Part shown: in pieces, positions 7,292 through 64,000 of the stretch | How the letters are laid out: the number at the start of each line of letters is the position of its first letter | Position numbering within the stretch: the first letter of the stretch is position 1 | Source of the DNA: Rhynchopus sp. YZ270_cl-10 | Lineage: Eukaryota | DNA: 64,000 nucleotides | Assembly: GCA_964035575.1 (NCBI GenBank) | Contig: OZ037835.1 | Coordinates: forward strand, 620,001 to 684,000 | Reading direction: 5' to 3' | Position numbers and translations under genes: made by a program | The notes under the pieces: model-generated | What the model saw: only the letters and a program-made list of their open reading frames with translations | Database searches by the model: none | Told to the model about the DNA's origin: nothing

Positions 7292-9134
7292 CCGTTTTTT
7301 CCGGGTGTCGGTGGGCTGTAATTGGGTGTAATTGGGCTGTAACTGGGCGTAATTGGGTGAAATTGGGCAAAAATGCCGTTTTTTGCACCTTTGACTTGCT
7401 TTTCGGTCCCCACACCCCCAATTTTTCCCACTTCTGTGCTGTTTCCCTACAAATCCATATAAAATCGAAAACGGCGATGAAAAAGATGCCTTGGTAAATG
7501 GTCACAGATGTTGCACCTGCGCGGTTCCAATGCGAGAATGGAGGACACATGTACCGTTTCCCCCAATTGACCTGCAAGAAATGGCGTAAACCCGCTGCTT
7601 TTAAACACCGGCATTTGCATTTTCGGAATCCGTCCGGCCAGTGGTGGGATCAATTTGCCGAAATGGACAAGTTCTCGTTTTTTGGTCAATTTCCGCACAG
7701 TACACAGTACACAGTACACAGTACACAGTACACAGTACACAGTACACAGTACACAGTACACAGTACACAGTACACAGTACACAGTACACAGTACACAGTA
7801 CACAGTACACAGTACACAGTACACAGTACACAGTACACAGTACACAGTACACAGTACACAGTACACAGTACACAGTACACAGTACACAGTACACAGTACA
7901 CAGTACACAGTACACAGTACACAGTACACAGTACACAGTACACAGTACACAGTACACAGTACACAGTACACAGTACACAGTACACAGTACACAGTACACA
8001 GTACACAGTACACAGTACACAGTACACAGTACACAGTACACAGTACACAGTACACAGTACACAGTACACAGTACACAGTACACAGTACACAGTACACAGT
8101 ACACAGTACACAGTACACAGTACACAGTACACAGTACACAGTACACAGTACACAGTACACAGTACACAGTACACAGTACACAGTACACAGTACACAGTAC
8201 ACAGTACACAGTACACAGTACACAGTACACAGTACACAGTACACAGTACACAGTACACAGTACACAGTACACAGTACACAGTACACAGTACACAGTACAC
8301 AGTACACAGTACACAGTACACAGTACACAGTACACAGTACACAGTACACAGTACACAGTACACAGTACACAGTACACAGTACACAGTACACAGTACACAG
8401 TACACAGTACACAGTACACAGTACACAGTACACAGTACACAGTACACAGTATACAAACCACCTGATTGCCAACTTCCGAAAACCATCACCTGTACCGATA
8501 CACAAACTCCACGGTCAAAAATAGTGTTATTATTGGAGTAAACGCCAGGTGGTCTGAAGAGTGATCTGACCATATTCTCCAGGTATAACAAATGCTCAAA
8601 CAATGCATTGTCGAAGGAATATTGTACTTTCGACCACCACAGATTACATGTGTTTCTACCGGTTTTTTATGTGCTGATGTGTGCTGGGAAGCATGTCACC
8701 AGTGTTACAATTTTACAAGGTAAAAATGACCTATGTACGTATGTGAGGAAGAAGGCTGAGTGGGCATATAGTGCCACAAAATATATGGGAGGCATGCAGT
8801 CCCCTGTCCGGTTACCAAAACCCGCCCGTCATAGGCGTTCCCACTTTTCGGTGCCACACCTGAAAAGCGGGTGTCGTCACACCCTCTAGTTGAGTATCCC
8901 GTTTGACCCGCTCAGAGGCTGGACCTCACCGTGTGAGCAAGCAAAACAGGTCACCCCCTGGTAAGCCCCCCTCAAAAACACCTGAGTTGTACTAGTGGTG
9001 TGACTGGGTGTAATTGGTTGTAATTGGGCAAAATTGGGCTGTACTTGGGTTTTATTGGGTATAATTGGGCATAATTGACCCCAAGTGGGTCCAGATGGGC
9101 TCTGTTGGGTCCGGTTGGGTGGGTGAAAAAACGG
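7292..9134. mobile_element. Putative TA-target TIR element carrying the long CACAGTA array
   Basis: TA|CCGTTTTTTC ... GAAAAAACGG|TA; GGGTGTAATTGG-type subterminal repeats near both ends. TIR only 10 bp. Confidence 0.45.
7696..8451. repeat. (CACAGTA)108 heptamer array
   Basis: 756 bp that appears perfect; explains the six spurious YCVLCTV/HSTQYTV ORFs. Confidence 0.97.
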
Positions 9135-10185: not shown

Positions 10186-12684
10186 TTAGCAGTGGATGGG
10201 CACTGTGTCACCGGAAGCAGTGTTCAGGACACGCATGAGTGTTGCGTCGGCACCACACTGCGCTGTGATCTCTTTTTCCTCACCTGCGACGAACGCGGCC
10301 CAGTAGTCGGGACTCCAGCCCCACATTGCCTCTTCGTCTTCGTCGAAGTCGCGGTTGTCTACACAGACCTGGTGCACCGTCACAGAGGTGGTTCCTCGCA
10401 GGCGGCTCACGTCGCACTTTAGCACCGGTCGTATCACCGTCGAGTATGGGACGTCCGCCTGCAGTGAGCAGTACAGCGCAAACACATTCCGGCTCACGCT
10501 CTGGCGGAGGAGGTGTCCTGCCACACCCAGGCACGCGCCGATGCTTGTCATGAAGCGCTTCCCGGCTGTGCCCAGTGTGGCCGCGTACACCGTGCCTGTG
10601 CACAGCCCAACTAACACAGGGCTGTCCGTGTAAGCCCACATAGTCGATTTGTGAAGCAGCTTGCAGAAAACAAAGGAAGCCTGTGTGTGGTTCATGCTGC
10701 GACGCGAAATGTTCCAGCCCGCAACCACGTGAGACCCGAAGAGTGCTGTGACAGAGCCTTCCGTCCGTTCGAGCGAGCTGATCACCTTCCCCAGCTTCTC
10801 GTTTGCGCTGCCGATGGGGTCTGCTGACGTCTCACTGAAGCGCAGTTCGATGCGTGCGACTGTTGCTAGCTTTCCCTCGCAGTCTTGGTGTTGTGTGTGT
10901 TTGCGCTCCCTGATGGACGTGCGCACAGAGCCCGCGGAACACACTGACTGCTTTGGGGCATAGACAGCTTCAGAAGGACGCCGCAGTGCTTCCGTGACAG
11001 CCTTCTCACGCCACGGCATCGATGCGGGAATGACACACACCAAAGACACCTTCTGGCCCACACCCTTCAGCTCAATGTCTCCCATCGCAACGCTGAGCCC
11101 GCTGTCGCCGCACGCCGTCTTCCACTCGTCGTAGACTGCCTGTGGTGCTGCCACCGACCCAGCAACACAACGTGACTCAATGCGTGCTGCAACGTTCACC
11201 GTGGGGCCGAAGTAGTCTGCTCGCCCTGTGATGCCGTTGAACTCCACACGCACGTCGCCTGCATTCACACCGATGCGCAGCTGCATGCCGACCTTGCTCT
11301 CCTTCTCTGTCTTCGGTTGGGTGAAGTCCACCAACTCCTGCGGCCACGTGACCCCGTACATCCGCTCCTGCACAAGCACGCCAAAGCTGACTCCCTCCTG
11401 TGACGTGTCGAAGGACACCATGAAGGCATCCCCGATCGTCTTCACCTCGTACCCGTTCAGTTCAGCAATGCAGTCGCGGACGGCCTTGTTGTGCAGACGC
11501 ATGCCCTTCGCCATGCCCTCGGGACAGCCCTCCCACAGCTGCGTCGACGCCACAATGTCTGTGAACACGATGGCAGCACGGCCGTACACTGCACCGGGTG
11601 CGTCTGTGCGTGTCAGTGCGACCTGGTACGCATCCTCCTCAAGCACCTCCTCGCTGTCTTCCTTGAGCGACGCGAGGAAGGCTTCTGGGATGAACTGCTT
11701 GATGTCCCGCAGCAGGCCGATGATGCGCGCAAGCGACACCTGCACACGCGACCTTGGCTCGCGCTCCAGGTGCTCGAGGTTGTCCAGATCCATCACGGCG
11801 ATTGCGTCCATTGCCTCCTCCGCGTCTGCACGCACCTTCTCCATGTCTGCCACCAACCCTGACATGTAGTCCGTTACAAACATCCCGATCCACTTATCAA
11901 CAACACACAGCGTCAGACAGGTACGGTAATGCTGGTGCTCATTGAAGATGAAGGATCCTATGTTCATTGTGCTGAAGGCAGCAAACAGGAGGCACGCGAC
12001 CACGGCACCTGCAGGACTCACCCCGACGCACACACGCAGCGATGCGACACCACGCCTCAACTTCCACGTCTCCCAGAAGAAGCATGCGCACAGCACCAAC
12101 GAGAACACAGTGTTGTACCCCACAATGGAGATGCTGGCCATGGGCTTCACCTGCAGGAAGCACGTATTCGTTGCACTGATGTGCGCATCGACGTTGAACA
12201 ACAGGATCAACCCTACCACCAGGTACGGCACCATGAAGCCCATCATCAGCAACCAATGGCGGTCCTTCCACCTGGAGAGCGGGGCGTCACGCGAGGCGTC
12301 ACGCAGAATACGAAGCCGCTCCACCAACAGCGTCACCAGGGCAACCTTCCCACCTGCGTAGAAGACAGAGCAGGAGTACACTGCAAGGTGGCAGAGCCCC
12401 AGGTACGGCTTGTCCAGCGCAATAGCCGTCGAGGTGACCAGTACAAAGCAGAAAACAGCCAGGTACACCACCCACACCAGCACGCCCATATACGTTGTGC
12501 GGTCGCCGCTCGTCCCGGCAGCACGCTCGCCCATGAGGTACGCTGTCGTAGCCATCATCATCAGGTGCACCGTCTGCACAGCAGCGTCGGTCTCGCCACC
12601 TCGGTACAGCGACATCCCGATCGCAGAAAAGACAAGAGTCATCAGCGCACGGCGGAAGTACGCGTAGAACACAGCCGACGGCAT
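10186..12684 (-). CDS. 7TM GPCR-like receptor fused to a class III adenylate cyclase plus a degenerate second cyclase domain (832 aa)
   Basis: 7-8 hydrophobic segments in aa 1-275. Cyclase motifs AIVFTDIVASTQLWE, YEVKTIGDAFMV, LRIGVNAG and DYFGPTVNVAARIES keep both metal Asp, the ATP-specifying K/D and the N/R residues. The C-terminal cyclase-like repeat lacks them. Confidence 0.92.
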   Translation of the reverse strand: MPSAVFYAYFRRALMTLVFSAIGMSLYRGGETDAAVQTVHLMMMATTAYLMGERAAGTSGDRTTYMGVLVWVVYLAVFCFVLVTSTAIALDKPYLGLCHLAVYSCSVFYAGGKVALVTLLVERLRILRDASRDAPLSRWKDRHWLLMMGFMVPYLVVGLILLFNVDAHISATNTCFLQVKPMASISIVGYNTVFSLVLCACFFWETWKLRRGVASLRVCVGVSPAGAVVACLLFAAFSTMNIGSFIFNEHQHYRTCLTLCVVDKWIGMFVTDYMSGLVADMEKVRADAEEAMDAIAVMDLDNLEHLEREPRSRVQVSLARIIGLLRDIKQFIPEAFLASLKEDSEEVLEEDAYQVALTRTDAPGAVYGRAAIVFTDIVASTQLWEGCPEGMAKGMRLHNKAVRDCIAELNGYEVKTIGDAFMVSFDTSQEGVSFGVLVQERMYGVTWPQELVDFTQPKTEKESKVGMQLRIGVNAGDVRVEFNGITGRADYFGPTVNVAARIESRCVAGSVAAPQAVYDEWKTACGDSGLSVAMGDIELKGVGQKVSLVCVIPASMPWREKAVTEALRRPSEAVYAPKQSVCSAGSVRTSIRERKHTQHQDCEGKLATVARIELRFSETSADPIGSANEKLGKVISSLERTEGSVTALFGSHVVAGWNISRRSMNHTQASFVFCKLLHKSTMWAYTDSPVLVGLCTGTVYAATLGTAGKRFMTSIGACLGVAGHLLRQSVSRNVFALYCSLQADVPYSTVIRPVLKCDVSRLRGTTSVTVHQVCVDNRDFDEDEEAMWGWSPDYWAAFVAGEEKEITAQCGADATLMRVLNTASGDTVPIHC

Positions 12685-12796: not shown

Positions 12797-13671
12797 CAGG
12801 CCTTTTGCTAACCATCATGCCATCATGCCACGTTTTTGGGCGTTTTTTATTTTTTTTTCCATCATGCCACCATCATGCCACGGGGGGTGGTTGGGCAGGG
12901 CTTTCGCTCTGCATCACCTGGGGATTTCCCCCCCCCCCCAGATGGCATGATGGCATGATGGCATGATGGCATGATGGCATGATGGCATGATGGCATGATG
13001 GCATGATGGCATGATGGCATGATGGCATGATGGCATGATGGCATGATGGCATGATGGCATGATGGCATGATGGCATGATGGCATGATGGCATGATGGCAT
13101 GATGGCATGATGGCATGATGGCATGATGGCATGATGGCATGATGGCATGATGGCATGATGGCATGATGGCACCTTAAAATTTTTCTGCTCGCTGCGCTCG
13201 CGGAGGTATACCTCAAAAAAAAATCCCGCTCGCTTCGCTCGCGCTGTACGCTATTTTCTTCCTGCCTACGGTGCCATTTTACAATGTCTAAGGGGATTCC
13301 CTTGCATTTTGCAGCCAAAAATGAAACTTGACCCAAGCTGCAAAAATTTGACCATTGTTATTTCAAAGTGACCCAACCGTTGCAACAGCCCCTGCTTCTG
13401 GAAGACGTATTGATTTTGTACGGTTAGTGTACGTAAGGCGCAAGACCAAGCACCGTTAATAAAGGAATAGATTCCGTTTTTTTTTTTTGTTATCTCGCAA
13501 AGCTGACCCTTCGCCTCTCACCCTGTGGCTGGCAGGGAGGCGCGCGCGAAGCGCGCGACGACCGCTTTCACCAGGTGGGAAAGCTCGGAATGTACTTTTT
13601 TTCCAGGAAATTATTTTTTTTTGACCATCATGCCATTCAGGGGGAAAATCCCAAAGTTTGCAAAAGGCCTG
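12797..13671. mobile_element. hAT-like non-autonomous element with an internal GATGGCAT array
   Basis: TIR CAGGCCTTTTGC/GCAAAAGGCCTG; GATAAAAGC duplicated at 12788-12796 and 13672-13680; subterminal CCATCATGCCA motifs at both ends. Confidence 0.85.
12941..13171. repeat. (GATGGCAT)n octamer array, about 29 copies
   Basis: Perfect tandem repeat read directly. Confidence 0.97.
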
Positions 13672-21433: not shown

Positions 21434-22631
21434 GAAAGTGGTTCATATACCACATATGCCCCATATGACTGCTAAAAGTGGTTCTTATTCCCCATATGTC
21501 TGCGAAAAGTGGATCTTATACCACATATGCCTGCGAAAAGTGGATCTTATACCCCATATGTCTGCGAAAAGTGGATCTTATACCCCATATGCCTGCGAAA
21601 AGTGGTTCTTATACCACATATGCCTGCGAAAAGTGGTTCTTATACCACATATGCCTGCGAAAAGTGGTTCTTATACCACATAGGCCTGCGAAAAGTGGAT
21701 CTTATACCCCATATGCCTGCGAAAAGTGGTTCTTATACCACATATGCCTGCGAAAAGTGGTTCTTATACCACATATGCCTGCGAAAAGTGGTTCTTATAC
21801 CACATATGCCTGCGAAAAGTGGATCTTATACCCCATATGCCTGCGAAAAGTGGATCTTATACCCCATATGTCTGCGAAAAGTGGTTCTTATACCACATAT
21901 GCCTGCGAAAAGTGGATCTTATACCACATATGCCTGCGAAAAGTGGATCTTATACCCCATATGTCTGCGAAAAGTGGTTCTTATACCACATATGCCTGCG
22001 AAAAATGGATCTTATACCCCATATGCCTGCGAAAAGTGGATCTTATACCCCATATGTCTGCGAAAAGTGGTTCTTATACCCCATATGCCTGCGAAAAGTG
22101 GATCTTATACCCCATATGCCTGCGAAAAGTGGTTCTTATACCCCATATGTCTGCGAAAAGTGGTTCTTATACCACATATGCCTGCGAAAAGTGGATCTTA
22201 TACCCCATATGCCTGCGAAAAGTGGATCTTATACCACATATGCCTGCGAAAAGTGGATCTTATACCCCATATGTCTGCGAAAAGTGGTTCTTATACCACA
22301 TATGCCTGCGAAAAGTGGATCTTATACCCCATATGCCTGCGAAAAGTGGTTCTTATACCACATATGCCTGCGAAAAGTGGATCTTATACCCCATATGTCT
22401 GCGAAAAGTGGTTCTTATACCACATATGCCTGCGAAAAGTGGATCTTATACCACATATGCCTGCGAAAAGTGGTTCTTATACCACATATGCCTGCGAAAA
22501 GTGGTTCTTATACCACATATGCCTGCGAAAAGTGGATCTTATACTCCATATGCCTGCGAAAAATGGATCTTATACCCCATATGCCTGCGAAAAGTGGATC
22601 TTATACCCCATATGCCACATATGCCTGCGAA
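21434..22631. repeat. 31-bp minisatellite, about 37 copies
   Basis: Unit GCGAAAAGTGG(A/T)TCTTATACC(A/C)CATATG(C/T)CT, head to tail with no spacers. Confidence 0.96.
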
Positions 22632-27833: not shown

Positions 27834-28926
27834 GGGGCGTCCCGGGCACGGCGTAATTCAGGTGTAATGGGGTGTAATGGAGTGTAATGGAGGGAATTTA
27901 AACTTTTTGCTTTTTTTGCGCTTTCCCCCCGTTTTTTCAACACGAAAAGTCCAAAAAAGGTGACAACAAAAATTTTTTGGGCGAGTGGAGCAAAAAAAAA
28001 TTTGCCTGGCTGACCATTGCCGAAGGAATTTTGCACTTTTGACCACCACAGATTACACGTTGTTTTACGATTTTTTCTATGCACTTATGCGTACAGTGCC
28101 ACCGGTGTTAAATTTTTACTGGCGTGGCTACATAACCGATTCCCCATGTTTCTACCGTGTTTCTACACAGTACACAGTACACAGTACACAGTACACAGTA
28201 CACAGTACACAGTACACAGTACACAGTACACAGTACACAGTACACAGTACACAGTACACAGTACACAGTACACAGTACACAGTACACAGTACACAGTACA
28301 CAGTACACAGTACACAGTACACAGTACACAGTACACAGTACACAGTACACAGTACACAGTACACAGTACACAGTACACAGTACACAGTACACAGTACACA
28401 GTACACAGTACACAGTACACAGTACACAGTACACAGTACACAGTACACAGTACACAGTACACAGTACACAGTACACAGTACACAGTACACAGTACACAGT
28501 ACACAGTACACAGTACACAGTACACAGTACACAGTACACAGTACACAGTACACAGTACACAGCACTGTACAAGGCAAAAATGACCAAAACAGCTGATGTT
28601 TTGGCCGAATGCCACCCTATCAGGAATATTTTCATGTTTTCACACAAATTTTTTCTGGCCTCAATACCCCCAAACTACACGATTTTCGGTTCCGGCAAAT
28701 TTTTGGAGCACCAAATATCGCGAAAAAATTCAATTTTTTTGGTGTCGTCCGCACATCCCTTTAGCAAAGACCAAAACACCAAGGCGTTGTAATTCATGTG
28801 TAATGGGGTGTAATGGGGCGTAATGGGGTGTAAGTGGGTGTAAGTGGGTGTAAGTGGGTGTAATTCGGTGAAATGGGGTGAAAGTGTGCGTAAGTGGGTG
28901 TTAGTGTGGTACCGCCGGGACACCCC
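27834..28926. mobile_element. Putative nested TIR element carrying the second CACAGTA array
   Basis: GGGGCGTCCCGG vs CCGGGACACCCC; flanks ATATTAT/ATATTAC; TAATGGGGTG-type subterminal repeats; internal similarity to about 8605-8732. Confidence 0.55.
28164..28562. repeat. (CACAGTA)57 heptamer array
   Basis: 399-bp perfect tandem repeat. Confidence 0.97.
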
Positions 28927-29827: not shown

Positions 29828-31966
29828 CTAGTACACACTGTCCCTGGCTGTGAGGGGGGCCACTTCGTAAAGGCCGGATCTGCCTTTGATCGGTTTGGTC
29901 ACGTTTTGGAGTGTGACCGGCAGTGTGGCGTGCTGTGGGGGCTCGTACAGACACCGCACACCCACACGAACCGCCTCGTCGCACAGCGCGGAGCTCCGGT
30001 GCACGGTCGCCCCCATGACAGTCACAAAGCGCTGCTTGCGTGCCCCGACCGTACCGTGCTGCACAGTGCCACTCACCACCGCCATCCCTGCAAGCGGAAC
30101 CCCAGACAGCGCACGCTGCGCAAAGCGGATCGCGTTCTCTGTGTGCGCCGGGGCAGACCGGGTGAGGTTCCACCCTACGTGGACACGGTTCCCTAGCATG
30201 GCGACAACAGTTCCACAACTCTGATCCAAGGCGACCGTGAGGGTGGAGAGGGCGTTGCTCATTGTCTGCATGACCGCAGTGTTGCCTTCTTCACCCACAT
30301 CCACCTCAAGCACCCCTAAGGTCGCTTCAAAGCACCGTGCAGGGGTGAGGGGGAAGCACGCAGACTCCGCTAGGGGAACCCCACCAAGGGAGTTGGTCGA
30401 GCTCGCCCGCGACGCGTTGCCTACAGAACTGCAGTTGGATATGTTGCGAGGCAGTTCAATGTTCAGTGTGTTGGCTGCCACCAGAGGGCGCTGCTTGCGC
30501 CCTGCCAGGGACAGCGGCCACACACAGCATACAAAGGTCGTCCCCGATACACCCTTCAAATCTAGAGCCTCAGAGGCACCTACAACAGCAGAGATCGCAC
30601 CGCACTCTGCAGACCATAGGTCTGTGCGTACTGCCACTGCGCCTGGTGTGCAGATGCTCTCAAGGCGTGACGCAACGTTGACAGTGTGTCCGAAGTAGTC
30701 GATTCTCCCGGTCAGTGTGCTCGAATCTATCGAGACCGGTCCGGAGTTGACACCAATGCGAACGGTGAGGCCGCACCACAGTGCGCCCTGCTTTGCGCAG
30801 ATCGGTGCGTTTTCGAGGAGAGAGGCGGGCCAGTCTGCTTCACGTAGAAGTTCGTGTACACGAAGGCCAAATTCGATACCGTGCTGGGTGGAGGAGAAGG
30901 CGACCATGAAGGCGTCGCCGATGGTTTTGACCTCATACCCGCCGAAGGAGAGCATGGTAGCGCGCATGATGGTATTGTGGATGCGGAGTGCTGCGTGCAT
31001 ACCGTCGGGGGCGTGCTGCCAGATCCATGTGGAGGAACGGATGTCCGTGAACACCACCGTCGCCACCTCGCTCACAACCCCCGGCGCGACTGACATATTC
31101 TGCGCTGTCTGTGTGTCCGCTTCATCAGCCTCCTCAAACAGCGCAGCAGGGAGGTACGGACGGTACTTCCTCAGGTTTCTCTCCATCTGTTTGAGAGATG
31201 CATGCATGCCCTGTGGAAGCTGTGTCTCCGAATCAAGCATGCGCGCCACACCCTCCACGTCGTACCCCGCAAGCAGACCCGCAATCTCCTGCACAACGTT
31301 GATGGTCCGCTCCATTGATGCCTGCTCTGCCGCAGCGTCGCGAGCAAAGCCTCGGGTGACAAGAAAGTCTATCGTCAGCATGGAGCACGATGAGATGAAG
31401 CTCTCCGGAAAGTCCACTGCGCATGGCAGCTCTTCGCAGTCCGTCAGCGCATCGAAGTACGCACGACGTCCATACTCACCCCCCTGCGGCCGCAGCCCAG
31501 GCAGATCCAACAAACCAAATCGAAACGTCTCTTCACATGCCATGATTGCAAACCAGATCACAGTGCAAACAACTACTGCAACAGGGTACATGGACGGCAC
31601 GTCCATGACAAGCATTAAGTCCAAAATGGCGACCTGGAGAGGCCAGTTCGGGGTCAGCACAGTACGCCCATTCAGGTCTGCAACGAGAACCACAAAGCTT
31701 AGAAGCATGAGCGAGTTTGCAACGAAGGCGGGTGGGAGAGCGCGTTTGCACAGCACCATGATGATGACCGTTGGGTAGAAGAATAAGATGCCCACATACC
31801 CGACAAGCATGATCTGCGACTCCATCTGCTGCTGCAACGTCAAGACCGTGCCAGAAAGGACAAACGGCAGCGCGACCACTGCGAAAAAAAAGAAGATGGT
31901 CCGTCGCTGCTGTGCCTTCTTCCCAAGCGTGTTGTCCATGGACAAAGCATCGTGTAGATACCCCAT
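29828..31966 (-). CDS. Multi-pass membrane adenylate cyclase with a degenerate second cyclase domain (712 aa)
   Basis: About 6 TM segments; motifs VVFTDIRSSTWIW, YEVKTIGDAFMV, VRIGVNSG and DYFGHTVNVASRLES are intact. Confidence 0.93.
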   Translation of the reverse strand: MGYLHDALSMDNTLGKKAQQRRTIFFFFAVVALPFVLSGTVLTLQQQMESQIMLVGYVGILFFYPTVIIMVLCKRALPPAFVANSLMLLSFVVLVADLNGRTVLTPNWPLQVAILDLMLVMDVPSMYPVAVVVCTVIWFAIMACEETFRFGLLDLPGLRPQGGEYGRRAYFDALTDCEELPCAVDFPESFISSCSMLTIDFLVTRGFARDAAAEQASMERTINVVQEIAGLLAGYDVEGVARMLDSETQLPQGMHASLKQMERNLRKYRPYLPAALFEEADEADTQTAQNMSVAPGVVSEVATVVFTDIRSSTWIWQHAPDGMHAALRIHNTIMRATMLSFGGYEVKTIGDAFMVAFSSTQHGIEFGLRVHELLREADWPASLLENAPICAKQGALWCGLTVRIGVNSGPVSIDSSTLTGRIDYFGHTVNVASRLESICTPGAVAVRTDLWSAECGAISAVVGASEALDLKGVSGTTFVCCVWPLSLAGRKQRPLVAANTLNIELPRNISNCSSVGNASRASSTNSLGGVPLAESACFPLTPARCFEATLGVLEVDVGEEGNTAVMQTMSNALSTLTVALDQSCGTVVAMLGNRVHVGWNLTRSAPAHTENAIRFAQRALSGVPLAGMAVVSGTVQHGTVGARKQRFVTVMGATVHRSSALCDEAVRVGVRCLYEPPQHATLPVTLQNVTKPIKGRSGLYEVAPLTARDSVY

Positions 31967-34270: not shown

Positions 34271-35641
34271 TTACGAAACACTGCAGCAAGGCAAGGCTGC
34301 TTTCGTCTGGTCTCTGCCACGTGTCGGAGGTGTGTCAACCACATACTTCTTCAGCTCGCCTTCACGCACTCGACTGGACACAACACTGCTGCAGCCGGCA
34401 AGGCGGATGCTCCTCAACGAAGTGTAGTTGCCAGCAGGTACATCACCCATGTGCGTAACCTTGCGGAGTGGTGATAGGTCTAGTTCTGTGAGGCTGCTGC
34501 AGTTGGAAAGAAAGTTTGTGCCAATGTGTGTAACATTGCGAAGTGGTGATAAGTCCACTGTTGTGAGGCTGCTGCAGTTGGAAAGAAAGCCCCCGCTAAT
34601 GTGAGCAAGGCTGCAGTCGGAAAGAAAGCTTGTACTAATGTGTGTAACATTGCTGAGTGATGATAAGTCCACTGCTATGAGGCCGCTGCAACTGTCAAGA
34701 AAGCCTGCGCTAATGTGTGTAACATTGCTGAGTGATGATAAGTCCACTGCTGTGAGGCTGCTGCATCTGGAAAGAAAGTTTGTCTTAATGTGTGTAACAT
34801 TGCGAAGTGGTGATAAGTCTACTGATGTGAGGCTGCTGCAGCGGGCAAGAAAGCTTGTACTAATGTGTGTAACGCTGCTGAGTGGAGATAAGTCCACTGC
34901 TGTGAGGCCGCTGCATTTGTAAAGAAAGCTTGAACTAATGTGTGTAACACTGCGAAGTGGTGATAAGTCCACTGATGTGAGGCCACTGCAGTTGTAAAGA
35001 AAGCTTGAACTGATGTGTGTAACACTGCGGAACAGTGATAAGTCTAGTTCTGTGAGGCATCTGCAGTTGTAAAGAAAGCTTGTACTAATGTGAGTAACAT
35101 TGCGAAGTGGTGATAAGTCTACTGCTGTGAGGCTGCTGCAGTCGGCAAGAAAGTAGGTACCAATCCGCGTGAGACGTGTCAACCCAGACAGGTCGATGCT
35201 TGCCAACGTTGTACACCCGTGAAGGAAACAGTCGGAAATTTCCGTCACGCACGACACAGCACTCAGATCAAGTCTCGTTATCGATGAACGCGACAAGAAT
35301 CCTTTCGGAATGACAGTCGCAACCTCCGCCTGCAGAAGCAAACACGCAACCTCAGGATCCTCCACAGTCTCCAGCCTCTCTGCTCTGATGTCCCTTTCAC
35401 CCAACGCACGAAGTGCTGCTCTGGCTAAGAACTTCTTACTTTCCGTCAGGATGATTGTGTCACCAGCACTCAGCTGCGTGATGTCGTCTCCTTCGTCCTT
35501 CCCTCCGAAGCCCATGTGGAAGCTGTCCTCAGCCAACCCCACTGCAGACGCCACCTTCTGCCGCATCGTCTCCGTTGTGTCATCCACACCCACCTCCATC
35601 ACATACGAGTTGTCCGCGAAGTCCTTGATAACTACTTCCAT
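34271..35641 (-). CDS. Ubiquitin-like domain + BspA/TpLRR-type leucine-rich repeat protein with a C-terminal CaaX-like motif (456 aa)
   Basis: N-terminus MEVVIKDF...MEVGVDDTTETMRQKVA...LSAGDTIIL has a Ubl pattern; about 11 repeats of 25 aa (LTAVDLSPLRNVTHISTSFLYNC); ends CCSVS. Confidence 0.9.
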   Translation of the reverse strand: MEVVIKDFADNSYVMEVGVDDTTETMRQKVASAVGLAEDSFHMGFGGKDEGDDITQLSAGDTIILTESKKFLARAALRALGERDIRAERLETVEDPEVACLLLQAEVATVIPKGFLSRSSITRLDLSAVSCVTEISDCFLHGCTTLASIDLSGLTRLTRIGTYFLADCSSLTAVDLSPLRNVTHISTSFLYNCRCLTELDLSLFRSVTHISSSFLYNCSGLTSVDLSPLRSVTHISSSFLYKCSGLTAVDLSPLSSVTHISTSFLARCSSLTSVDLSPLRNVTHIKTNFLSRCSSLTAVDLSSLSNVTHISAGFLDSCSGLIAVDLSSLSNVTHISTSFLSDCSLAHISGGFLSNCSSLTTVDLSPLRNVTHIGTNFLSNCSSLTELDLSPLRKVTHMGDVPAGNYTSLRSIRLAGCSSVVSSRVREGELKKYVVDTPPTRGRDQTKAALPCCSVS

Positions 35642-41653: not shown

Positions 41654-43522
41654 TTAGTATTTTTGTGTATTACCCCGCAGGAAGCCTGAATGAGGTACGT
41701 CCTCCAAGTCTTTCCCACGTCCACGTGAGAGAATGGAATCTGAGAACGTGTCGTAACACTCACCTGTTAAGGCTGCATATTGACACTCTGTTCCCTCACG
41801 CAACGGTCGTGCCAAGGCCACACTCAGAAGACCTCCCTTGACTGTCGAGGGATGCACGTTCAAAGGGCTCCGTTCACAAGGACAGCCCTGTGCAGCCTCT
41901 TCAACCGCTGCTGCAGACGCATCGCCCTTCAGGTACTTCCGTACTGTTGTGTTGTAGTTATCCCACTCACTGCTCTTCCCGATCTGGTACATCCATTCTT
42001 CAGCAGGGTGGCCAGAAGCGGCGATGTTAAGCAGAAGCTCGGCAGCCACTTCAGGTGTGTCAGAGGTTGCAGACACTTCCACCCTGCACGGAATCAGGCG
42101 CATCTCGTGTTCGCACTCAGCGTCGCTGAAGCACATACGGTTGCAGAGCACGTCGCAGCCAAGGATCAGTCCTGCACGTTCCATCCCATGCACGTCACGC
42201 ACGAGTGTGCCCACCATGCTGAAGCGACGCATCACTTCACACCCCATGTCACCACGCAGCACCTTCCCGGTTGCAACACCAATGTTTACCTGCGACGGCT
42301 GCGACCCCCTGAACAGCATCGCTGCAGTGTGCAGTGCAGAGGAGGCGTGGTTTGCACACTGCCTTGACGTGTTGAACGAGCAGTGCACCCTGTCACCGAT
42401 GAACACGTCCACCATCCCACGCCATGTTTCTATTGACTTTAACGTCTTCAGAAGAAGAGTTGTGAAGAAGGAGGAGAAGTATGCACTGTCCTGCTCCACC
42501 AGACGCAACGTGTCTTTGATGTTCACCGTCAGCAGAGTCGCCTTCACAGACGACAGCACAAAGGGAACGCAACGAAAGCTTTTCGGAATGCTTCCACTTG
42601 AACAACGTGACGACAGTGAAGGCTCAGACACGTCTGCACTGCACTCCTCTTCATTGTGTTTTTCACCTTCATCCCCAAGCAAACACGTCTGTGGCAGGTA
42701 CGCTTTGTACGACCGCAGGTTCTTCTCCAACGCACGCAGTGCCACCGTCATCCCCTGAGGCAGCTCATGTTCATGCTCCTCCAGCAGCTCCGCCACCTTC
42801 TCCACGTCGTAGCCAGCCAGGAGCGAGGCAATCTCTTGCACAGCGTTGATCGTCCGCTCCATTGCTGCCTGCTCCTTCAGCACCTCGCTTGCGAAGCCAC
42901 GCGTCACGATGAAGTCCAGCACAAAGACACTAGTTGCAGTAAACAGGCGGCTCGAAGGGAACGGTATTGGGCAGGGTGGCGTCTCGCAGGCAAGCTTCTC
43001 CTCCAAATAATACAGCCGTCCGTGCTTACCCTCCTGTGGCGCCAACCAGGGCAGGTCGAACAGACCAAACCTGAAGCTCTCCTCAACACTCAGCACCACC
43101 AACCATATCATGACAAAACAGACAAGACCCAGACTGTACACCTTGGGCACCTGCATCACAAGCAGCATGTCGATGATGAGCACAAGGAGAGGCCATTGCT
43201 CCATCGAGACAGCTCGTGAATTCAAATCCCACAAAAGCAACCCAAATGTCACCACGTACAGCGTGCCCACCACCACCCTTGTTGTCAACGGAACCCTGCA
43301 CAGCACTGCACAGATCGCAATGCCAAGCCCAAGCAGCGCCACCAGTGTTCCCACAAAGAAGACGGGGTTTCTTTGCTGCGCTTCCAACGTCAAGACCATA
43401 GTGACAACCATAGCACACCAACCCACACAAGCAAAGATGAAGAACTGTGTGCGCAGCTCCTTCCTTTTGGTGCTCAGTGTCCCGTCCAAGGAGAGCACGC
43501 CGTTGAGACACTGCATCCCCAT
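41654..43522 (-). CDS. Multi-pass membrane protein with a catalytically degenerate class III cyclase domain (622 aa)
   Basis: TM region and linker homologous to 29828-31966; the cyclase fold reads ATLLTVNI, VDVFIGDRV, IGVATG, VGTLVRDVHGMER (first Asp, Lys, Asn and Arg lost). Confidence 0.88.
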   Translation of the reverse strand: MGMQCLNGVLSLDGTLSTKRKELRTQFFIFACVGWCAMVVTMVLTLEAQQRNPVFFVGTLVALLGLGIAICAVLCRVPLTTRVVVGTLYVVTFGLLLWDLNSRAVSMEQWPLLVLIIDMLLVMQVPKVYSLGLVCFVMIWLVVLSVEESFRFGLFDLPWLAPQEGKHGRLYYLEEKLACETPPCPIPFPSSRLFTATSVFVLDFIVTRGFASEVLKEQAAMERTINAVQEIASLLAGYDVEKVAELLEEHEHELPQGMTVALRALEKNLRSYKAYLPQTCLLGDEGEKHNEEECSADVSEPSLSSRCSSGSIPKSFRCVPFVLSSVKATLLTVNIKDTLRLVEQDSAYFSSFFTTLLLKTLKSIETWRGMVDVFIGDRVHCSFNTSRQCANHASSALHTAAMLFRGSQPSQVNIGVATGKVLRGDMGCEVMRRFSMVGTLVRDVHGMERAGLILGCDVLCNRMCFSDAECEHEMRLIPCRVEVSATSDTPEVAAELLLNIAASGHPAEEWMYQIGKSSEWDNYNTTVRKYLKGDASAAAVEEAAQGCPCERSPLNVHPSTVKGGLLSVALARPLREGTECQYAALTGECYDTFSDSILSRGRGKDLEDVPHSGFLRGNTQKY

Positions 43523-44109: not shown

Positions 44110-45948
44110 TCAATGAGTAACGTCCTTCAAGCCTTTCCCACGTCCACGTGAGAGAATGGAATCGGACAACGTGTCGTAACACTCACCTGTTAAGGCTGCA
44201 TATTGACACTCTGTTCCCTCACGCAACGGTCGTGCCAAGGCCACACTCAGAAGACCTCCCTTGACTATCGAGGGATGCACGTTCAAAGGGCTCCGTTCAC
44301 AAGGACAGCCCTGTGCAGCCTCTTCAACCGCTGCTGCAGACACATCGCCCTTCAGGTACTTCCGTACTGTTGTGTTGTAGTTCTCCCACTCACTGTTCTT
44401 CCCGATCTGGTACATCCATTCTTCAGCAGGGTGGCCAGAAGCGGCGATGTTAAGCAGAAGCTCGGCAGCCACTTCAGGTGTGTCAGAGGTTGCAGACACT
44501 TCCACCTTGCACGGAATCAGGCGCATCTCGTGTTCGCACTCAGTTTCGGTAAAGCAAAGGCGGTTGCAGAGCACGTCGCAGCCAAGGATCAGTCCTGCAC
44601 GTTCCATCCCATGCACGTCACGCACAAGTGTGCCCACCATGCTGAAGCGGCGCATCACTTCACACCCCATTTCACCACGCAGCACCTTCCCAGTTGCAAC
44701 ACCAATGTTTACCTGCGACGGCTGCGACCCCCTGAACAGCATCGCTGCAGTGTGCAGTGCAGAGGAGGCGTGGTTTGCACACTGCCTTGACGTGTTGAAC
44801 GAGCAGTGCACCCTGTCACCGATGAACACGTCCACCATCCCACGCCGTGTTTCTATTGACTTTAACGTCTTCAGAAGAAGAGTTGTGAAGAAGGAGGAGA
44901 AGTATGCACTGTCCTGCTCCACCAGACGCAACGTGTCTTTGATGTTCACTGTCAGCAGAGTCGCCTTCACAGACGACAGCACAAAGGGAACGCAACGAAC
45001 GCTTTTTGCCAGAATGCTTCCACTTGAACAACGTGACGACAGTGAAGGCTCAGACACGTCTGCACTGCACTCCTCTTCATTGTGTTTTTCACCTTCATCC
45101 CCAAGCAAACACGTCTGTGGCAGGTACGCTTTGTACGACCGCAGGTTCTTCTCCAACGCACGCAGTGCCACCGTCATCCCCTGAGGCAGCTCATGTTCAT
45201 GCTCCTCCAGCAGCTCCGCCACCTTCTCCACGTCGTAGCCAGCCAGGAGCGAGGCAATCTCTTGCACAGCGTTGATCGTCCGCTCCATTGCTGCCTGCTC
45301 TTTCAGCACCTCGCTTGCGAAGCCACGCGTCACGATGAAGTCCAACGCAAAGACAGCTGTTGCAGTAAACAGGCGGTTCGAAGGGAACGGTATTGGGCAG
45401 GGTGGCGTCTCGCAGACAAACTTCTCTTCCAAGTAATACAGCCGTCCGTACTTACCCTCTTGTGGCGCCAACCAGGGCAGGTCGAACAGACCAAACCTGA
45501 AGCTCTCCTCAACACTCAGCACCACCAACCATACGATCACAAAACAGACAAGACCTTGACTGTACACCTTGGGCACCTGCATCACAAGCAGCATGTCAAT
45601 GATGAGCACAAGGAGAGGCCACTGCTCTATTGAGATAGTTCGTCCATTCAAATCCCACATCAGCATTCCACATGTGATCGTGTACAGCGTGCCCACCACC
45701 ACCCTTGTTGTCAACGGAACCCTGCACAGCACTGCACAGATCGCAATACTGAGCCCAAGCAGCGCCACCAGTGTTCCCACAAAGAAGACGGGGTTTCTTC
45801 TCTGCTCTTCCAACGTCAAGACCATAGTGACAACCACAGTCCACCAACCCACACAGGCAAAGATGAAGTACTGTGTGCGCAGCTCCTTCCTTTTGGTGCT
45901 CAGTGTCCCGTCCAAGGAGAGCACGCCATTGAGACACTGCATCCCCAT
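44110..45948 (-). CDS. Multi-pass membrane pseudo-cyclase, paralog 2 (612 aa)
   Basis: Tandem near-identical paralog of 41654-43522. Confidence 0.88.
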   Translation of the reverse strand: MGMQCLNGVLSLDGTLSTKRKELRTQYFIFACVGWWTVVVTMVLTLEEQRRNPVFFVGTLVALLGLSIAICAVLCRVPLTTRVVVGTLYTITCGMLMWDLNGRTISIEQWPLLVLIIDMLLVMQVPKVYSQGLVCFVIVWLVVLSVEESFRFGLFDLPWLAPQEGKYGRLYYLEEKFVCETPPCPIPFPSNRLFTATAVFALDFIVTRGFASEVLKEQAAMERTINAVQEIASLLAGYDVEKVAELLEEHEHELPQGMTVALRALEKNLRSYKAYLPQTCLLGDEGEKHNEEECSADVSEPSLSSRCSSGSILAKSVRCVPFVLSSVKATLLTVNIKDTLRLVEQDSAYFSSFFTTLLLKTLKSIETRRGMVDVFIGDRVHCSFNTSRQCANHASSALHTAAMLFRGSQPSQVNIGVATGKVLRGEMGCEVMRRFSMVGTLVRDVHGMERAGLILGCDVLCNRLCFTETECEHEMRLIPCKVEVSATSDTPEVAAELLLNIAASGHPAEEWMYQIGKNSEWENYNTTVRKYLKGDVSAAAVEEAAQGCPCERSPLNVHPSIVKGGLLSVALARPLREGTECQYAALTGECYDTLSDSILSRGRGKGLKDVTH

Positions 45949-47830: not shown

Positions 47831-49600
47831 CTACTCACAGTTGTCCTTTCCCACAGCAGTTGTGTATGACAAGGCCACACTCAGAAGCCCGCCCTTGACT
47901 GTCGAGGGATGCACGTTCAAAGGGTTCCGTTCACAAGGACAGCCCTGTGCAGCCTCTTCAACCGCTGCTGCAGACGCATCGCCCTTCAGGTACTTCCGTA
48001 CTGTTGTGTTGTAGTTCTCCCACTCACTGCTCTTCCCGATCTGGTACATCCATTCTTCAGCAGGGTGGCCAGAAGCGGCGATGTTAAGCAGAAGCTCGGC
48101 AGCCACTTCAGGTGTGTCAGAGGTTGCAGACACTTCCACCCTGCACGGAATCAGGCGCATCTCGTGTTCGCACTCAGCGTCGCTGAAGCACATACGGTTG
48201 CAGAGCACGTCGCAGCCAAGGATCAGTCCTGCACGTTCCATCCCATGCACGTCACGCACGAGTGTGCCCACCATGCTGAAGCGGCGCATCACTTCACACC
48301 CCATGTCACCACGCAGCACCTTCCCGGTTGCAACACCGATGTTGATGTGGGGTGCGGCATTGCTTGCTTTGCCCATCAGTGTGGATGCAGAGTGCAGTGC
48401 TGAGGTGGCGTGGTTTGCACACTGCCTTGACGTGTTGAACGAGCAGTGCACCCTGTCACCCACGAACACGTCCACCATCCCACGGTATGACTCTGTTGCC
48501 TTCAACGTCTTCAGAAGAAGAGTTGTGAAGAGCTGCGAGAAGCCGGCCACATCCTCTTCCAGGAAGCACAGGGTGTCTTTGATGTTCACCATCAGCAGCG
48601 TTGCCTTCACCGAGGCCAGACCCAGAGCCGGTGCCTTTGCTAGGATATTGGGCATTGTCGACGTCGATCCACTCATCTGCATCGAATGTGCACTCCTTTC
48701 CTTCGACGACACAGAGACACTCTCAGCCTCCTCCGCCTCAACCAGCTCCTCAAACGGCAGACACGTCTGTGGCAGGTACGCTTTGTACGACCGCAGGTTC
48801 TTCTCCAACGCACGCAGTGCCACCGTCATCCCCTGAGGCAGCTCATGTTCATGCTCCTCCAGCAGCTCCGCCACCTGCTCCACGTCGTAGCCAGCCAGGA
48901 GCGAGGCAATCTCCTGCACAGCGTTGATCGTCCGCTCCATTGCTGCCTGCTCCTTCAGCACCTCGCTTGCGAAGCCACGCGTCATGATGAAGTCCAGAGC
49001 AAAGACAGCTGTTGCAGTAAACAGGCGGTCCGAAGGAAACGGTATTGGGCAGGGTGGCGTCTCGCAGGCAAACTTCAGCTCCAAATAATACAGCCGTCCG
49101 TACTTACCCTCCTGCGGGGACAACCAGGGCAGGTCGAACAGACCAAACCTGAAGCTCTCCTCAACACTCAGCACCACCAACCACGTGATGACAAAACAGA
49201 CAAGACCCAGACTGTACACCTTGGGCACCTGCATCACAAGCAGCATGTCGATGATGAGCACAAGGAGAGGCCATTGCTCTGACGAGACAGCTCGTGCATT
49301 CAAATCCCACAAAAGTAACCCAAATGTCGCCACGTACAGCGTGCCCACCACTATCCTTGTTGTCAACGGAACCCTGCACAGCACTGCACAGATCGCAATA
49401 CTGAGCCCAAGCAGCACCACCAGCGTTCCCGCAAAGAAGACGGGGTTTCTTAGCTGCGCTTCCAGCGTCATCACCAGAGTAACAACCATAGTCCACCAAC
49501 CCGCACAGGCAAAGATGAAGAACTGTGTGCGCAGCTCCTTCCTTTTGGTGCTCAGTGTCCCGTCCAAGGAGAGCACGCCGTTGAGACACTGCATCCCCAT
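47831..49600 (-). CDS. Multi-pass membrane pseudo-cyclase, paralog 3 (589 aa)
   Basis: Paralog of the two above, with a divergent central segment and a different C-terminus. Confidence 0.88.
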   Translation of the reverse strand: MGMQCLNGVLSLDGTLSTKRKELRTQFFIFACAGWWTMVVTLVMTLEAQLRNPVFFAGTLVVLLGLSIAICAVLCRVPLTTRIVVGTLYVATFGLLLWDLNARAVSSEQWPLLVLIIDMLLVMQVPKVYSLGLVCFVITWLVVLSVEESFRFGLFDLPWLSPQEGKYGRLYYLELKFACETPPCPIPFPSDRLFTATAVFALDFIMTRGFASEVLKEQAAMERTINAVQEIASLLAGYDVEQVAELLEEHEHELPQGMTVALRALEKNLRSYKAYLPQTCLPFEELVEAEEAESVSVSSKERSAHSMQMSGSTSTMPNILAKAPALGLASVKATLLMVNIKDTLCFLEEDVAGFSQLFTTLLLKTLKATESYRGMVDVFVGDRVHCSFNTSRQCANHATSALHSASTLMGKASNAAPHINIGVATGKVLRGDMGCEVMRRFSMVGTLVRDVHGMERAGLILGCDVLCNRMCFSDAECEHEMRLIPCRVEVSATSDTPEVAAELLLNIAASGHPAEEWMYQIGKSSEWENYNTTVRKYLKGDASAAAVEEAAQGCPCERNPLNVHPSTVKGGLLSVALSYTTAVGKDNCE

Positions 49601-53572: not shown

Positions 53573-54490
53573 TCAGAGACATACACATTGACACCTGACA
53601 TCGTCCTTTTTGAAGATGTTTTCCGACAAAACGGCGCTCGATCCGTCTACGTTGATGCTGATTGCACGGAGCTTGCATTTTTTGAAGCACCCTCTTCCGG
53701 TTGCCTCCACACTCGCCCACCCAGAGAGGTCGACTTCTGTCAACGCTGTGCATCCCCACAGGAAGCCGTATTCAATGTCTGTGACATTGCTCCACCCAGC
53801 CAGATGCAGTGTGGTCAATGAGGAGCACAAGGCGAGAAAGTAATCCTTAATGGACACAACACTGTGCCACCCAGACATATCTAGTGTAGTGAGCGCACGG
53901 CAGTTGTTGAGGAAGGAGTGTCCGATCTCTCTGACGCTGCTCCAGCCAGACAAATCCAGTGCGGTCAATACACGGCAGCCGCAGATGAAGCTGCTCTGGA
54001 TAACAGACACGCTGGTCCACCCAGACAAGTTTGATGCTCTCAGTGCAGTGCAGTCGTAGAGGAAGCCCTCGCAGATTGTTGTAACAACTGGGACAGTGTT
54101 GAGATCAAGTTCCTCCAACGTGGACTCTCTCAAGAAGTCAAATGGGATCTTAGTAACGACTTCTGCCTGCAGAAACAAATGAACCAGCTTGGGATCTTCC
54201 AGACCTTTGAACCGTTCTGCTGTCAGAGTTGTCTCGCCCAATGCACGAAGAGCTGCAATGGCACCGTCCTTCTGCGACAGCGTCTTCGTCAGAACAACTG
54301 TGTCCCCAGCACTCAGCTGCGTCGTGTTGTCTCCTTCGACCATCACCTTCCCTCCGAAGCTAATGTCAAATCCGTCTTCGCGCAACTCTGCTGCAGACGC
54401 CACCTTCCGCCGTATGTCCGCAGTTGTATCATCCACACCCACCTCGACTGTGTACTTCTCTCCGTCAAAGCTCTCCACACATATTTCCAT
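53573..54490 (-). CDS. Ubiquitin-like domain + BspA/TpLRR-type LRR protein with a CaaX-like end (305 aa)
   Basis: Paralog of 34271-35641: Ubl N-terminus, 25-aa repeats (LTALDLSGWSSVREIGHSFLNNC), ends CQCVCL. Confidence 0.9.
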   Translation of the reverse strand: MEICVESFDGEKYTVEVGVDDTTADIRRKVASAAELREDGFDISFGGKVMVEGDNTTQLSAGDTVVLTKTLSQKDGAIAALRALGETTLTAERFKGLEDPKLVHLFLQAEVVTKIPFDFLRESTLEELDLNTVPVVTTICEGFLYDCTALRASNLSGWTSVSVIQSSFICGCRVLTALDLSGWSSVREIGHSFLNNCRALTTLDMSGWHSVVSIKDYFLALCSSLTTLHLAGWSNVTDIEYGFLWGCTALTEVDLSGWASVEATGRGCFKKCKLRAISINVDGSSAVLSENIFKKDDVRCQCVCL

Positions 54491-62750: not shown

Positions 62751-64000
62751 TCAGTGCAGGTGCACAACGTACGGTGCATAAGCCTTCTGCTCCACATAGC
62801 CGGCAAGCTCTTCGTACTGTGTGCGTTGGTCCTGAGCGACGGTGTCCAGCAGAGAAGACGCCTTCTCAAAGTCCTGTTTGATGATGTGCTCGAAGACCTC
62901 GTTCCACACTGCGTGCGGGTTGTTCACGGCAGACTCCAGCTGGTACATCCACTCCTCATCTGCGCTGCTGCACAGCCCACGTACGGTAAACACGGTCTGT
63001 GCCTTCTCGCTCAGCTTCTCGTACAGCATCGCACCAGCACAACGCAGTACCACCTGTCCCTCCGCCTCACGCGAAATGTTCTGGTCAACCACACCAGGAA
63101 AGTTACGCTCCTTGTTCCAACGCTCCATCACAACCACCCACGACATGGACTGCGAAAGAATCGACATCTTCTTCATCCCGTTGCAGCCCATGTTCCCGAC
63201 ACGTGCCTCGCCTGTCGTGCACCCGTACGAGATCTTGTGTGCATCCCCAAGTGCTGTTGCCACTTCGTGTGCAGCCTTCACACAGGCAGCACTGTGCGAC
63301 GGCTTCGGAACAAAGGCGTTGAAGGTGGCAAGCATCTTGTCCCCTGCGAACGTGTCGCACACACCTTTGTTGTGCTGCACTGATGACATGATGTGCTCCA
63401 TAATACCACCGTGTGCGGAGAGCACCTCTGCGTCCTTGTGCTTCTTGCAGAAGGCGTGCCACGACACGACGTTCATGTGTGCCAGCGACACCTTCTTCTT
63501 CTTCATCCCTTCCACACGCAGCAGTGCCTTCTGGTGCTGCAGCGTAACACCCGAATTGCGTGACACACGTGAACTCTGTGACCCATGGGAATCCCGGGAC
63601 TTGCCTGACTGCGACTTCATAGTCGAAGATTCCGTCTCTGACACGTACTCTTTCTCACTGTCGTTGACAAGCACACTCTGCGGCATGTAGTTCCGGTACT
63701 CCACCAGGTTCGCCACCATGGTAACAAAGCTGCGCTGCATCATCCCCACTTCACTCAGCTGCGACACTGCACGGCCCGTGTCCACAGCCTCCAGGTCCAT
63801 CACAGCCACACTTGCCATCTCACTCCCAAGCTTCAGCAGAGGGGACGTGATGTAGCGTGTGAACACAACAGCAATGGCCAGGAGTACCGTGATCGCAACA
63901 GCCGTGACAACCACCATCACAATAACCGCATCCTCCTTCTGTGCGTCTGCAGAGGACAGATCTGATGCCACCTTCGCACGGATTGCATTCGTCGACGCAT
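62751..64000 (-). CDS. TM-HAMP-degenerate class III cyclase protein, 5' part outside the window
   Basis: Frame open to the window edge; TM helix then ITSPLLKL...SEVGMMQRSFVTM (HAMP-like), EYRNYMP linker, CDTFAGDKMLATFN, YGCTTG, EEWMYQ as in the other pseudo-cyclases. Confidence 0.85.
   Translation of the reverse strand, partial: ASTNAIRAKVASDLSSADAQKEDAVIVMVVVTAVAITVLLAIAVVFTRYITSPLLKLGSEMASVAVMDLEAVDTGRAVSQLSEVGMMQRSFVTMVANLVEYRNYMPQSVLVNDSEKEYVSETESSTMKSQSGKSRDSHGSQSSRVSRNSGVTLQHQKALLRVEGMKKKKVSLAHMNVVSWHAFCKKHKDAEVLSAHGGIMEHIMSSVQHNKGVCDTFAGDKMLATFNAFVPKPSHSAACVKAAHEVATALGDAHKISYGCTTGEARVGNMGCNGMKKMSILSQSMSWVVVMERWNKERNFPGVVDQNISREAEGQVVLRCAGAMLYEKLSEKAQTVFTVRGLCSSADEEWMYQLESAVNNPHAVWNEVFEHIIKQDFEKASSLLDTVAQDQRTQYEELAGYVEQKAYAPYVVHLH

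Follow-up and report, generated by a model that had tools for sequence, protein, structure and literature searches.

In enzyme rhodopsins (Rh-GC and Rh-PDE), a cyclic-nucleotide enzyme is attached by a helical linker to an extra transmembrane helix (TM0) and seven further helices, both termini lie inside, and the membrane part has the microbial rhodopsin fold with its retinal lysine. Fusions of a GPCR to an adenylyl cyclase (GPCR-ACs), which an earlier note on the DNA studied here had rightly placed in oomycetes, are reported from oomycetes only in the accessible text of the study describing them, where they were selected by 5 to 9 predicted helices and not by fold (PMC5784254). A review of that group, in the portion available, describes direct GPCR-to-AC transfer as without precedent, and activity and regulation as not yet known (PMC6033456). 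Kinetoplastids are described in the available part of PMC6337498 as having neither GPCRs nor heterotrimeric G proteins, and the receptor cyclases of trypanosomatids, in that of PMC7719234, as having a large ectodomain and one membrane helix; the earlier note had likewise given a lack of heterotrimeric G proteins and single-pass cyclases. Several membrane helices and HAMP domains occur in the nucleotidyl cyclases of Euglena (PMC6366073, accessible text).

A literature search, with subscription journals mostly outside it, returned no description of a GPCR-cyclase fusion in Euglenozoa. The main text of the Diplonema genome paper (PMC10161547), taken apart from its supplements, contains none of the terms “cyclase,” “GPCR,” or “G protein,” and the available parts of four further papers (PMC3971589, PMC12716839, PMC8227486, and PMC3718340) do not decide whether diplonemids have G proteins.

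Gene, reading frame, and domain order

The window analyzed here, a stretch of 64,000 nucleotides, contains on its minus strand an open reading frame (ORF) that runs from ATG to stop over 832 amino acids (aa), free of stops and frameshifts. Its features are as follows.

10186..12684, minus strand: whole ORF, 832 aa, with TM0, seven-helix domain (7TM), HAMP-like linker, and cyclase domains C1 and C2
12601..12675, minus strand: TM0, extra N-terminal helix (aa 4-28), a helix of the model preceded by RR and followed by acidic residues
11860..12591, minus strand: seven-helix core (aa 32-275), predicted GPCR fold, from model, Foldseek, and profile match
12391..12393, minus strand: Cys98, outer end of TM3, invariant in the 112-row alignment
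12316..12321, minus strand: Glu122-Arg123, cytoplasmic end of TM3, presumed class A E/DRY register, from the 112-row alignment
12160..12162, minus strand: Cys175, loop-2 beta-hairpin, invariant in the 112-row alignment
11662..11856, minus strand: linker (aa 277-341), likely two-helix module ending in an xxP element (FIPE), from the linker profile
11056..11586, minus strand: class III cyclase domain C1 (aa 367-543), Pfam Guanylate_cyc E 5.4e-25
10375..10863, minus strand: degenerate class III cyclase domain C2 (about aa 608-770), from profile matches

The motifs that the earlier note had read in an intact ORF are all at the places it gave, LGLC at residues 95-98, LLVER at 119-123, NTC at 173-175, and CLTLCVVD at 256-263. 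Its order of linker and then cyclase also holds, but the intact cyclase is not the end of the protein, which continues into C2.

Contigs from three of the four runs match parts of the ORF with zero differences, no single piece spanning it in full, while deeper contigs that differ from it by several per cent point to additional copies of the gene in the same organism. Five relatives from other assemblies (71-85% identity over the N-terminal region) have the same domain order, and a Trinity transcript from Flectonema carries a near-identical architecture. Because such architectures recur in other assemblies and in a transcript, and because contigs match, the ORF is not a product of chance or assembly. 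The word-index searches for homologues reach close relatives only, and a search for longer homologues, which spanned only 1484-4235 aa, was uninformative.

Elsewhere in the window, two ORFs on the minus strand (34271-35641 and 53573-54490) encode BspA-type leucine-rich repeats, the second with an N-terminal ubiquitin-like domain. Four long, near-perfect tandem arrays create spurious ORFs: 7696-8455 (7-mer x109), 12941-13171 (8-mer x29, just upstream of the gene), 21455-22616 (31-mer x38), and 28164-28562 (7-mer x57).

The membrane domain and its relatives

An AlphaFold model of residues 1-285 (pLDDT 91.7, pTM 0.88) has an N-terminal helix at 4-28, then helices at 32-57, 65-89, 95-131, 142-163, 181-211, 224-247, and 253-275, and a beta-hairpin at 165-179 in loop 2. 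With this model, all 48 matches listed by Foldseek were class A or C GPCRs (best E 2.6e-4, TM-score 0.37-0.57, 10 at E<=1e-3, probability 1.00), with no rhodopsins or transporters among them; a poor earlier model from 7 sequences (pLDDT 53.5) had already given GPCRs in 49 of the 49 rows listed (E 0.012-0.041). The GPCR-like 7TM fold proposed in the earlier note is thus what the structure predictions return, and neither a non-GPCR fold nor fewer than seven helices emerged from them. At the sequence level, a Pfam search of the membrane part gave nothing significant and a PDB search nothing useful; opioid-receptor rows (E 4-8) were out of register and were disregarded.

Relatives were collected with a profile of 7 close N-terminal sequences, which retrieved 162 proteins (E<=1e-3) from 1.84 billion, 150 of them listed. 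Among the 149 new matches listed, 145 are without linker and cyclase-type domain and four have them; since the linker profile was itself built including those four fused proteins, only the absence in the other 145 is informative. Twenty of the 149 were looked up, 9 being fungal (genera of Mucoromycota, Basidiomycota, and Ascomycota) and 2 euglenozoan. Named stand-alone members come from Dichotomocladium, Cunninghamella, Tulasnella, Dendryphion, Periconia, and a dothideomycete, and one fungal member has the UniRef name [quoted passage not shown] A profile from 100 stand-alone members only matched aa 32-282 of our protein at E 6.5e-35, a value that is optimistic because these members were chosen by similarity to the query family. 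The likeness to fungal GPCR-like proteins that the earlier note had pointed out takes the form of profile homology over this core with an unclassified stand-alone family, present in fungi and further eukaryotes, whose named members are mostly fungal. That family shares the invariant C, C, K, E, and C of our protein but, unlike it, is mostly without TM0.

The stand-alone family (P0014-P0158) is widespread, with named members in three fungal phyla, and has no Pfam model. No member of the 7TM family reaches any curated Pfam 7TM cut-off. For an alignment, 112 rows were picked mainly for covering at least 190 profile positions, and these members matched 23 Pfam families at E<=0.1. None of the 23 is a marker of the fungal GPCR classes as given in the available parts of PMC13308352, PMC3664084, and PMC12842992, namely STE2, HlyIII, Bac_rhodopsin, Lung_7-TM_R, ABA_GPCR, DUF3112, Solute_trans_a, CFEM/fungal rhodopsin, 7tm_1, 7tm_3, and Frizzled for classes I-XVII, rows II-VII of the class table being only partly covered by the comparison. 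An ESM Atlas search with a fungal relative gave clusters at 0.91-0.92 and a DUF7703 lead at 0.87. Three members are joined to a WD40 (P0097), aldo-keto reductase (P0027), or weak F-box-like domain (P0084), single cases that may be merged gene models. Five paralogues (P0003-P0006 and P0008) look like mosaics of each other; their longest contigs are of equal length, and they possibly form one gene cluster.

Five residues, C98, C105, K113, E122, and C175, are invariant in 112/112 rows. Two of them are the cysteines noted earlier at the top of TM3 and in loop 2, and they lie in the elements where they would be expected; from alignment and model, Cys175, within the hairpin, is the likely disulfide partner of Cys98. 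The residue after Glu122 is K or R in 110/112 rows, and the Cys-to-Glu spacing is 24 in 110/112. At this spacing we take Glu122-Arg123 to stand in the class A E/DRY register at the end of TM3, with the tyrosine absent. Polar residues within helices (K113, N241, D263, and Y109) are invariant or nearly so, and the stand-alone family has further conserved cysteines (C105, C256, and C260) besides K113, N241, and D263 inside the bundle. The CWxP and NPxxY motifs are absent and none of the 112 members matches 7tm_1; the membrane domain is a predicted GPCR fold that is not of class A. Identity as a rhodopsin-cyclase was considered and rejected, as there is no conserved TM7 lysine (K264 in 3/112 rows) and no Bac_rhodopsin match.

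A different multi-helix sensor, with a bundle merely resembling GPCRs, is suggested by the lack of a sequence match to GPCR families and by TM-scores near 0.5. Against this, the 48 Foldseek matches listed hold GPCRs only, and the Cys pair, the hairpin, and the TM3 register all fit GPCRs; we regard such a sensor as highly improbable and retain the GPCR fold.

A hydrophobic segment stands at the TM0 position in 12/12 rows of the fusion clade versus 5/100 stand-alone rows. TM0 is likely a membrane helix that places the N-terminus inside; its charge pattern fits this orientation, the alternative being a cleaved signal peptide. The predicted topology has eight helices with both termini inside. Seven helices after a leading hydrophobic segment, as the earlier note described them, are indeed found in the model, but the likely eight-helix topology had been missed.

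Among 6 close homologues, conservation is lowest in loop 2, TM4, TM5, and TM6 (0.66-0.73) and highest in intracellular loop 2 (0.99) and TM7 (0.92), as expected if paralogues differ in ligand and share their output, although gene conversion could have produced the same pattern. The high conservation of intracellular loop 2, together with the E-R/K kept at the end of TM3 and the occurrence of stand-alone relatives in fungi, which have G-alpha proteins (PMC3971589, accessible part), would also fit a receptor that couples to a G protein or arrestin-like partner, the fused cyclase being one output or controlled via that partner. However, packing against the linker could explain the loop-2 conservation just as well, TM7 leads on into a linker of dimer type and not a free tail, and the kinetoplastid branch is reported, in the available text of PMC6337498, to be without GPCRs and heterotrimeric G proteins. 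We consider coupling of this kind very unlikely.

Of the named homologues that have every domain, the nearest is a transcript of the diplonemid Flectonema neradi (P0011, EukProt), from which we take the host of our gene to be a diplonemid as well, as is likely. A second named fusion, from the euglenid Entosiphon sulcatum (P0026), has only 7TM, linker, and degenerate cyclase; its 7TM is much nearer to the stand-alone family (E 3e-55) than diplonemid-type 7TMs are, and it resembles an intermediate stage. No oomycete is found among the fused matches that carry names. In an approximate tree of the 112 rows, P0010 groups with the ten C1-bearing fusions in a single clade (support 0.99), and the Entosiphon protein falls near it with weak support (0.55 and 0.88) and two stand-alone rows interleaved. 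From these relationships, a single fusion event in early Euglenozoa is possible. The earlier interpretation, sound as to GPCR-like fold, fungal kinship, Cys pair, and intact cyclase, had overlooked that the fusion recurs.

The linker and the two cyclase domains

In the model, the helix goes on past TM7 (253-275, then 277-284) into the linker. A profile of the linker matches all five other cyclase-type ORFs of the window (E 6.5e-9 to 3.5e-7, in a database of 5). The Pfam HAMP model does not match the query linker directly and reaches a sub-threshold E of 0.0071 over the homologous segment of one paralogue; by sequence, the linker is likely a HAMP-derived module. The earlier note had described a helical linker; its HAMP-like character and its sharing with five other window genes had gone unnoticed. 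At its end, P333 of FIPE is invariant in 13/13 rows. From the motif and from descriptions of the element (PMC5995499), we take FIPE to be a cyclase transducer element, which it resembles. Class III cyclases are dimers regulated via an N-terminal transducer element (PMC5995499, available part). The five window ORFs with the same linker are the following.

29828..31966, minus strand: paralogue of 712 aa in which another kind of multi-helix membrane domain precedes the same linker; its C1 is intact (Pfam E 1.4e-23) and its C2 dead
41654..43522, 44110..45948, and 47831..49600, minus strand: three membrane proteins in tandem, each with this linker and a degenerate cyclase domain only, possible inactive partners of active cyclases
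62751..63917, minus strand: HAMP-like segment (Pfam E 0.0071) and degenerate cyclase only; this ORF is possibly truncated by an intron or by the end of the window

The membrane domain of the ORF at 41654 is unrelated to the 7TM domain (hhalign probability 0.2%), and none of the five paralogues is among the matches listed for the profile of stand-alone 7TM members. Because this one linker connects cyclase domains with membrane domains of no mutual kinship, it acts like an exchangeable cassette between sensor and cyclase. The presence of unrelated membrane domains on one linker and cyclase could also speak for a GPCR-derived anchor, that is, a scaffold for dimerization or targeting, with a cyclase that is constitutive or regulated from the cytosol, outside ligands playing no part; none of the 7TM relatives has a known ligand. 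The invariant outer cysteines and the polar in-helix residues (K113, N241, D263, and Y109), however, exceed the needs of an anchor, and the outer half is the most variable among paralogues. We judge an anchor decidedly unlikely and continue with a sensing role.

C1 keeps all seven catalytic residues (D376, K415, D419, D490, N497, R501, and K540), in agreement with the intact cyclase of the earlier note, and K415 and D490 are the adenine-selecting Lys/Asp. Of the others, D376 and D419 are the metal aspartates, N497 and R501 the transition-state pair, and K540 the phosphate lysine. Its best PDB matches are the trypanosome GRESAG 4.1 and 4.3 (E 2e-17). Across 12 fused rows, the residues read DKDDNRK in 8 and DKDDNRR (Arg for the last Lys) in 3, the remaining one (Entosiphon) having no C1. 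By these residues, C1 would be an adenylate-type class III cyclase, and cAMP synthesis is predicted.

C2 of the query alone has no Pfam match and no direct profile match to C1, and a profile of C2 with the five window paralogues matches 33/33 class III cyclases of the PDB (best E 1.7e-6). It is without the metal aspartates and without the Lys, Asp, Asn, and Arg of catalysis, and yet it is retained in all C1-bearing fused rows and in the ORF at 29828. Active sites of class III cyclases take residues from both partner domains. Neither site of a C1-C2 pair would work, and C1 domains of two chains would therefore have to pair for activity.

The retention of a domain with no catalytic residues, and the occurrence of linker plus dead domain only in four window ORFs and the Entosiphon protein, could be explained if C1 at rest were sequestered in an unproductive pseudo-heterodimer with the C2 of the same chain and activation freed it for C1 of a second chain, the paralogues with only a dead domain acting as dominant inhibitors. 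The C1-C2 contact is putative, however, and C2 is so divergent that it may no longer bind C1; we hold this exchange to be unlikely and prefer the dimer set out below.

Proposed signaling and comparison with known systems

With modest confidence, we favor a dimeric, one-component receptor adenylate cyclase that would turn an outside signal into cAMP within one protein. The GPCR-fold membrane domain would bind an outside ligand in the outer half of its bundle, and the change would pass from TM7 through the HAMP-like linker and the transducer element to C1. Two chains would pair through the linker and, since TM7 runs directly into it, a shift of TM7 could re-register the four-helix bundle and the transducer element. 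Active sites would form between two C1 domains; C2, which cannot complete a site because its metal-binding and substrate-binding residues are lost, may serve as regulator or brake. A G protein would not be needed, though none is excluded. The G-protein independence put forward in the earlier note is putative, as the reported absence of G proteins concerns kinetoplastids, the nearest named homologue comes from a diplonemid, and E-R is kept at the inner end of TM3. As to origin, we find it conceivable, if somewhat short of probable, that euglenozoans took up a receptor from an unclassified family of GPCR fold and connected it via an added TM0 and a HAMP-like transducer to a cyclase, as a ligand-gated, G-protein-free receptor with a pseudo-cyclase brake.

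If true, this would be a natural GPCR bundle that signals via TM7 and a dimeric coiled coil in place of a G-protein pocket, and its cAMP output would offer a convenient way to find ligands for an orphan receptor family of fungi. Direct switching of a fused enzyme by a GPCR domain could be put to the test with this protein, since cAMP production can be followed in E. coli or yeast and modular linkers control class III cyclases. The locus extends 7TM-cyclase fusions beyond oomycetes and places a protein of predicted GPCR fold in Euglenozoa, a group in which the kinetoplastids are reported to lack GPCRs. It also draws attention to a 7TM family that is widespread and has no Pfam model; chimeras with the linker and cyclase could report on the ligands of this family.

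The protein may work in a way analogous to the GPCR-AC bigrams of oomycetes or the receptor cyclases of trypanosomes, a putative likeness of function. With the oomycete bigrams, for which direct activation has been proposed, it shares a receptor domain of several passes that precedes an adenylyl cyclase in the same chain; compared by description and not by sequence, it differs in its likely euglenozoan host, modeled fold, HAMP-like linker, and dead second cyclase. Like ESAG4/GRESAG4 it is a one-component receptor cyclase, with a C1 nearest GRESAG 4.1/4.3 among solved structures, but it differs in its eight helices, its lack of an ectodomain, and its additional dead cyclase domain. It resembles the multi-TM/HAMP nucleotidyl cyclases of Euglena as a euglenozoan class III cyclase with several membrane helices and a HAMP-like module, and differs in its GPCR-fold sensor, “GPCR” being missing from the main text of PMC6366073. 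Although its matches are to GPCR folds and a TM7 lysine occurs in only 3/112 rows, its predicted build of TM0, seven helices, linker, and enzyme, with both termini inside, is that of Rh-GC and Rh-PDE.
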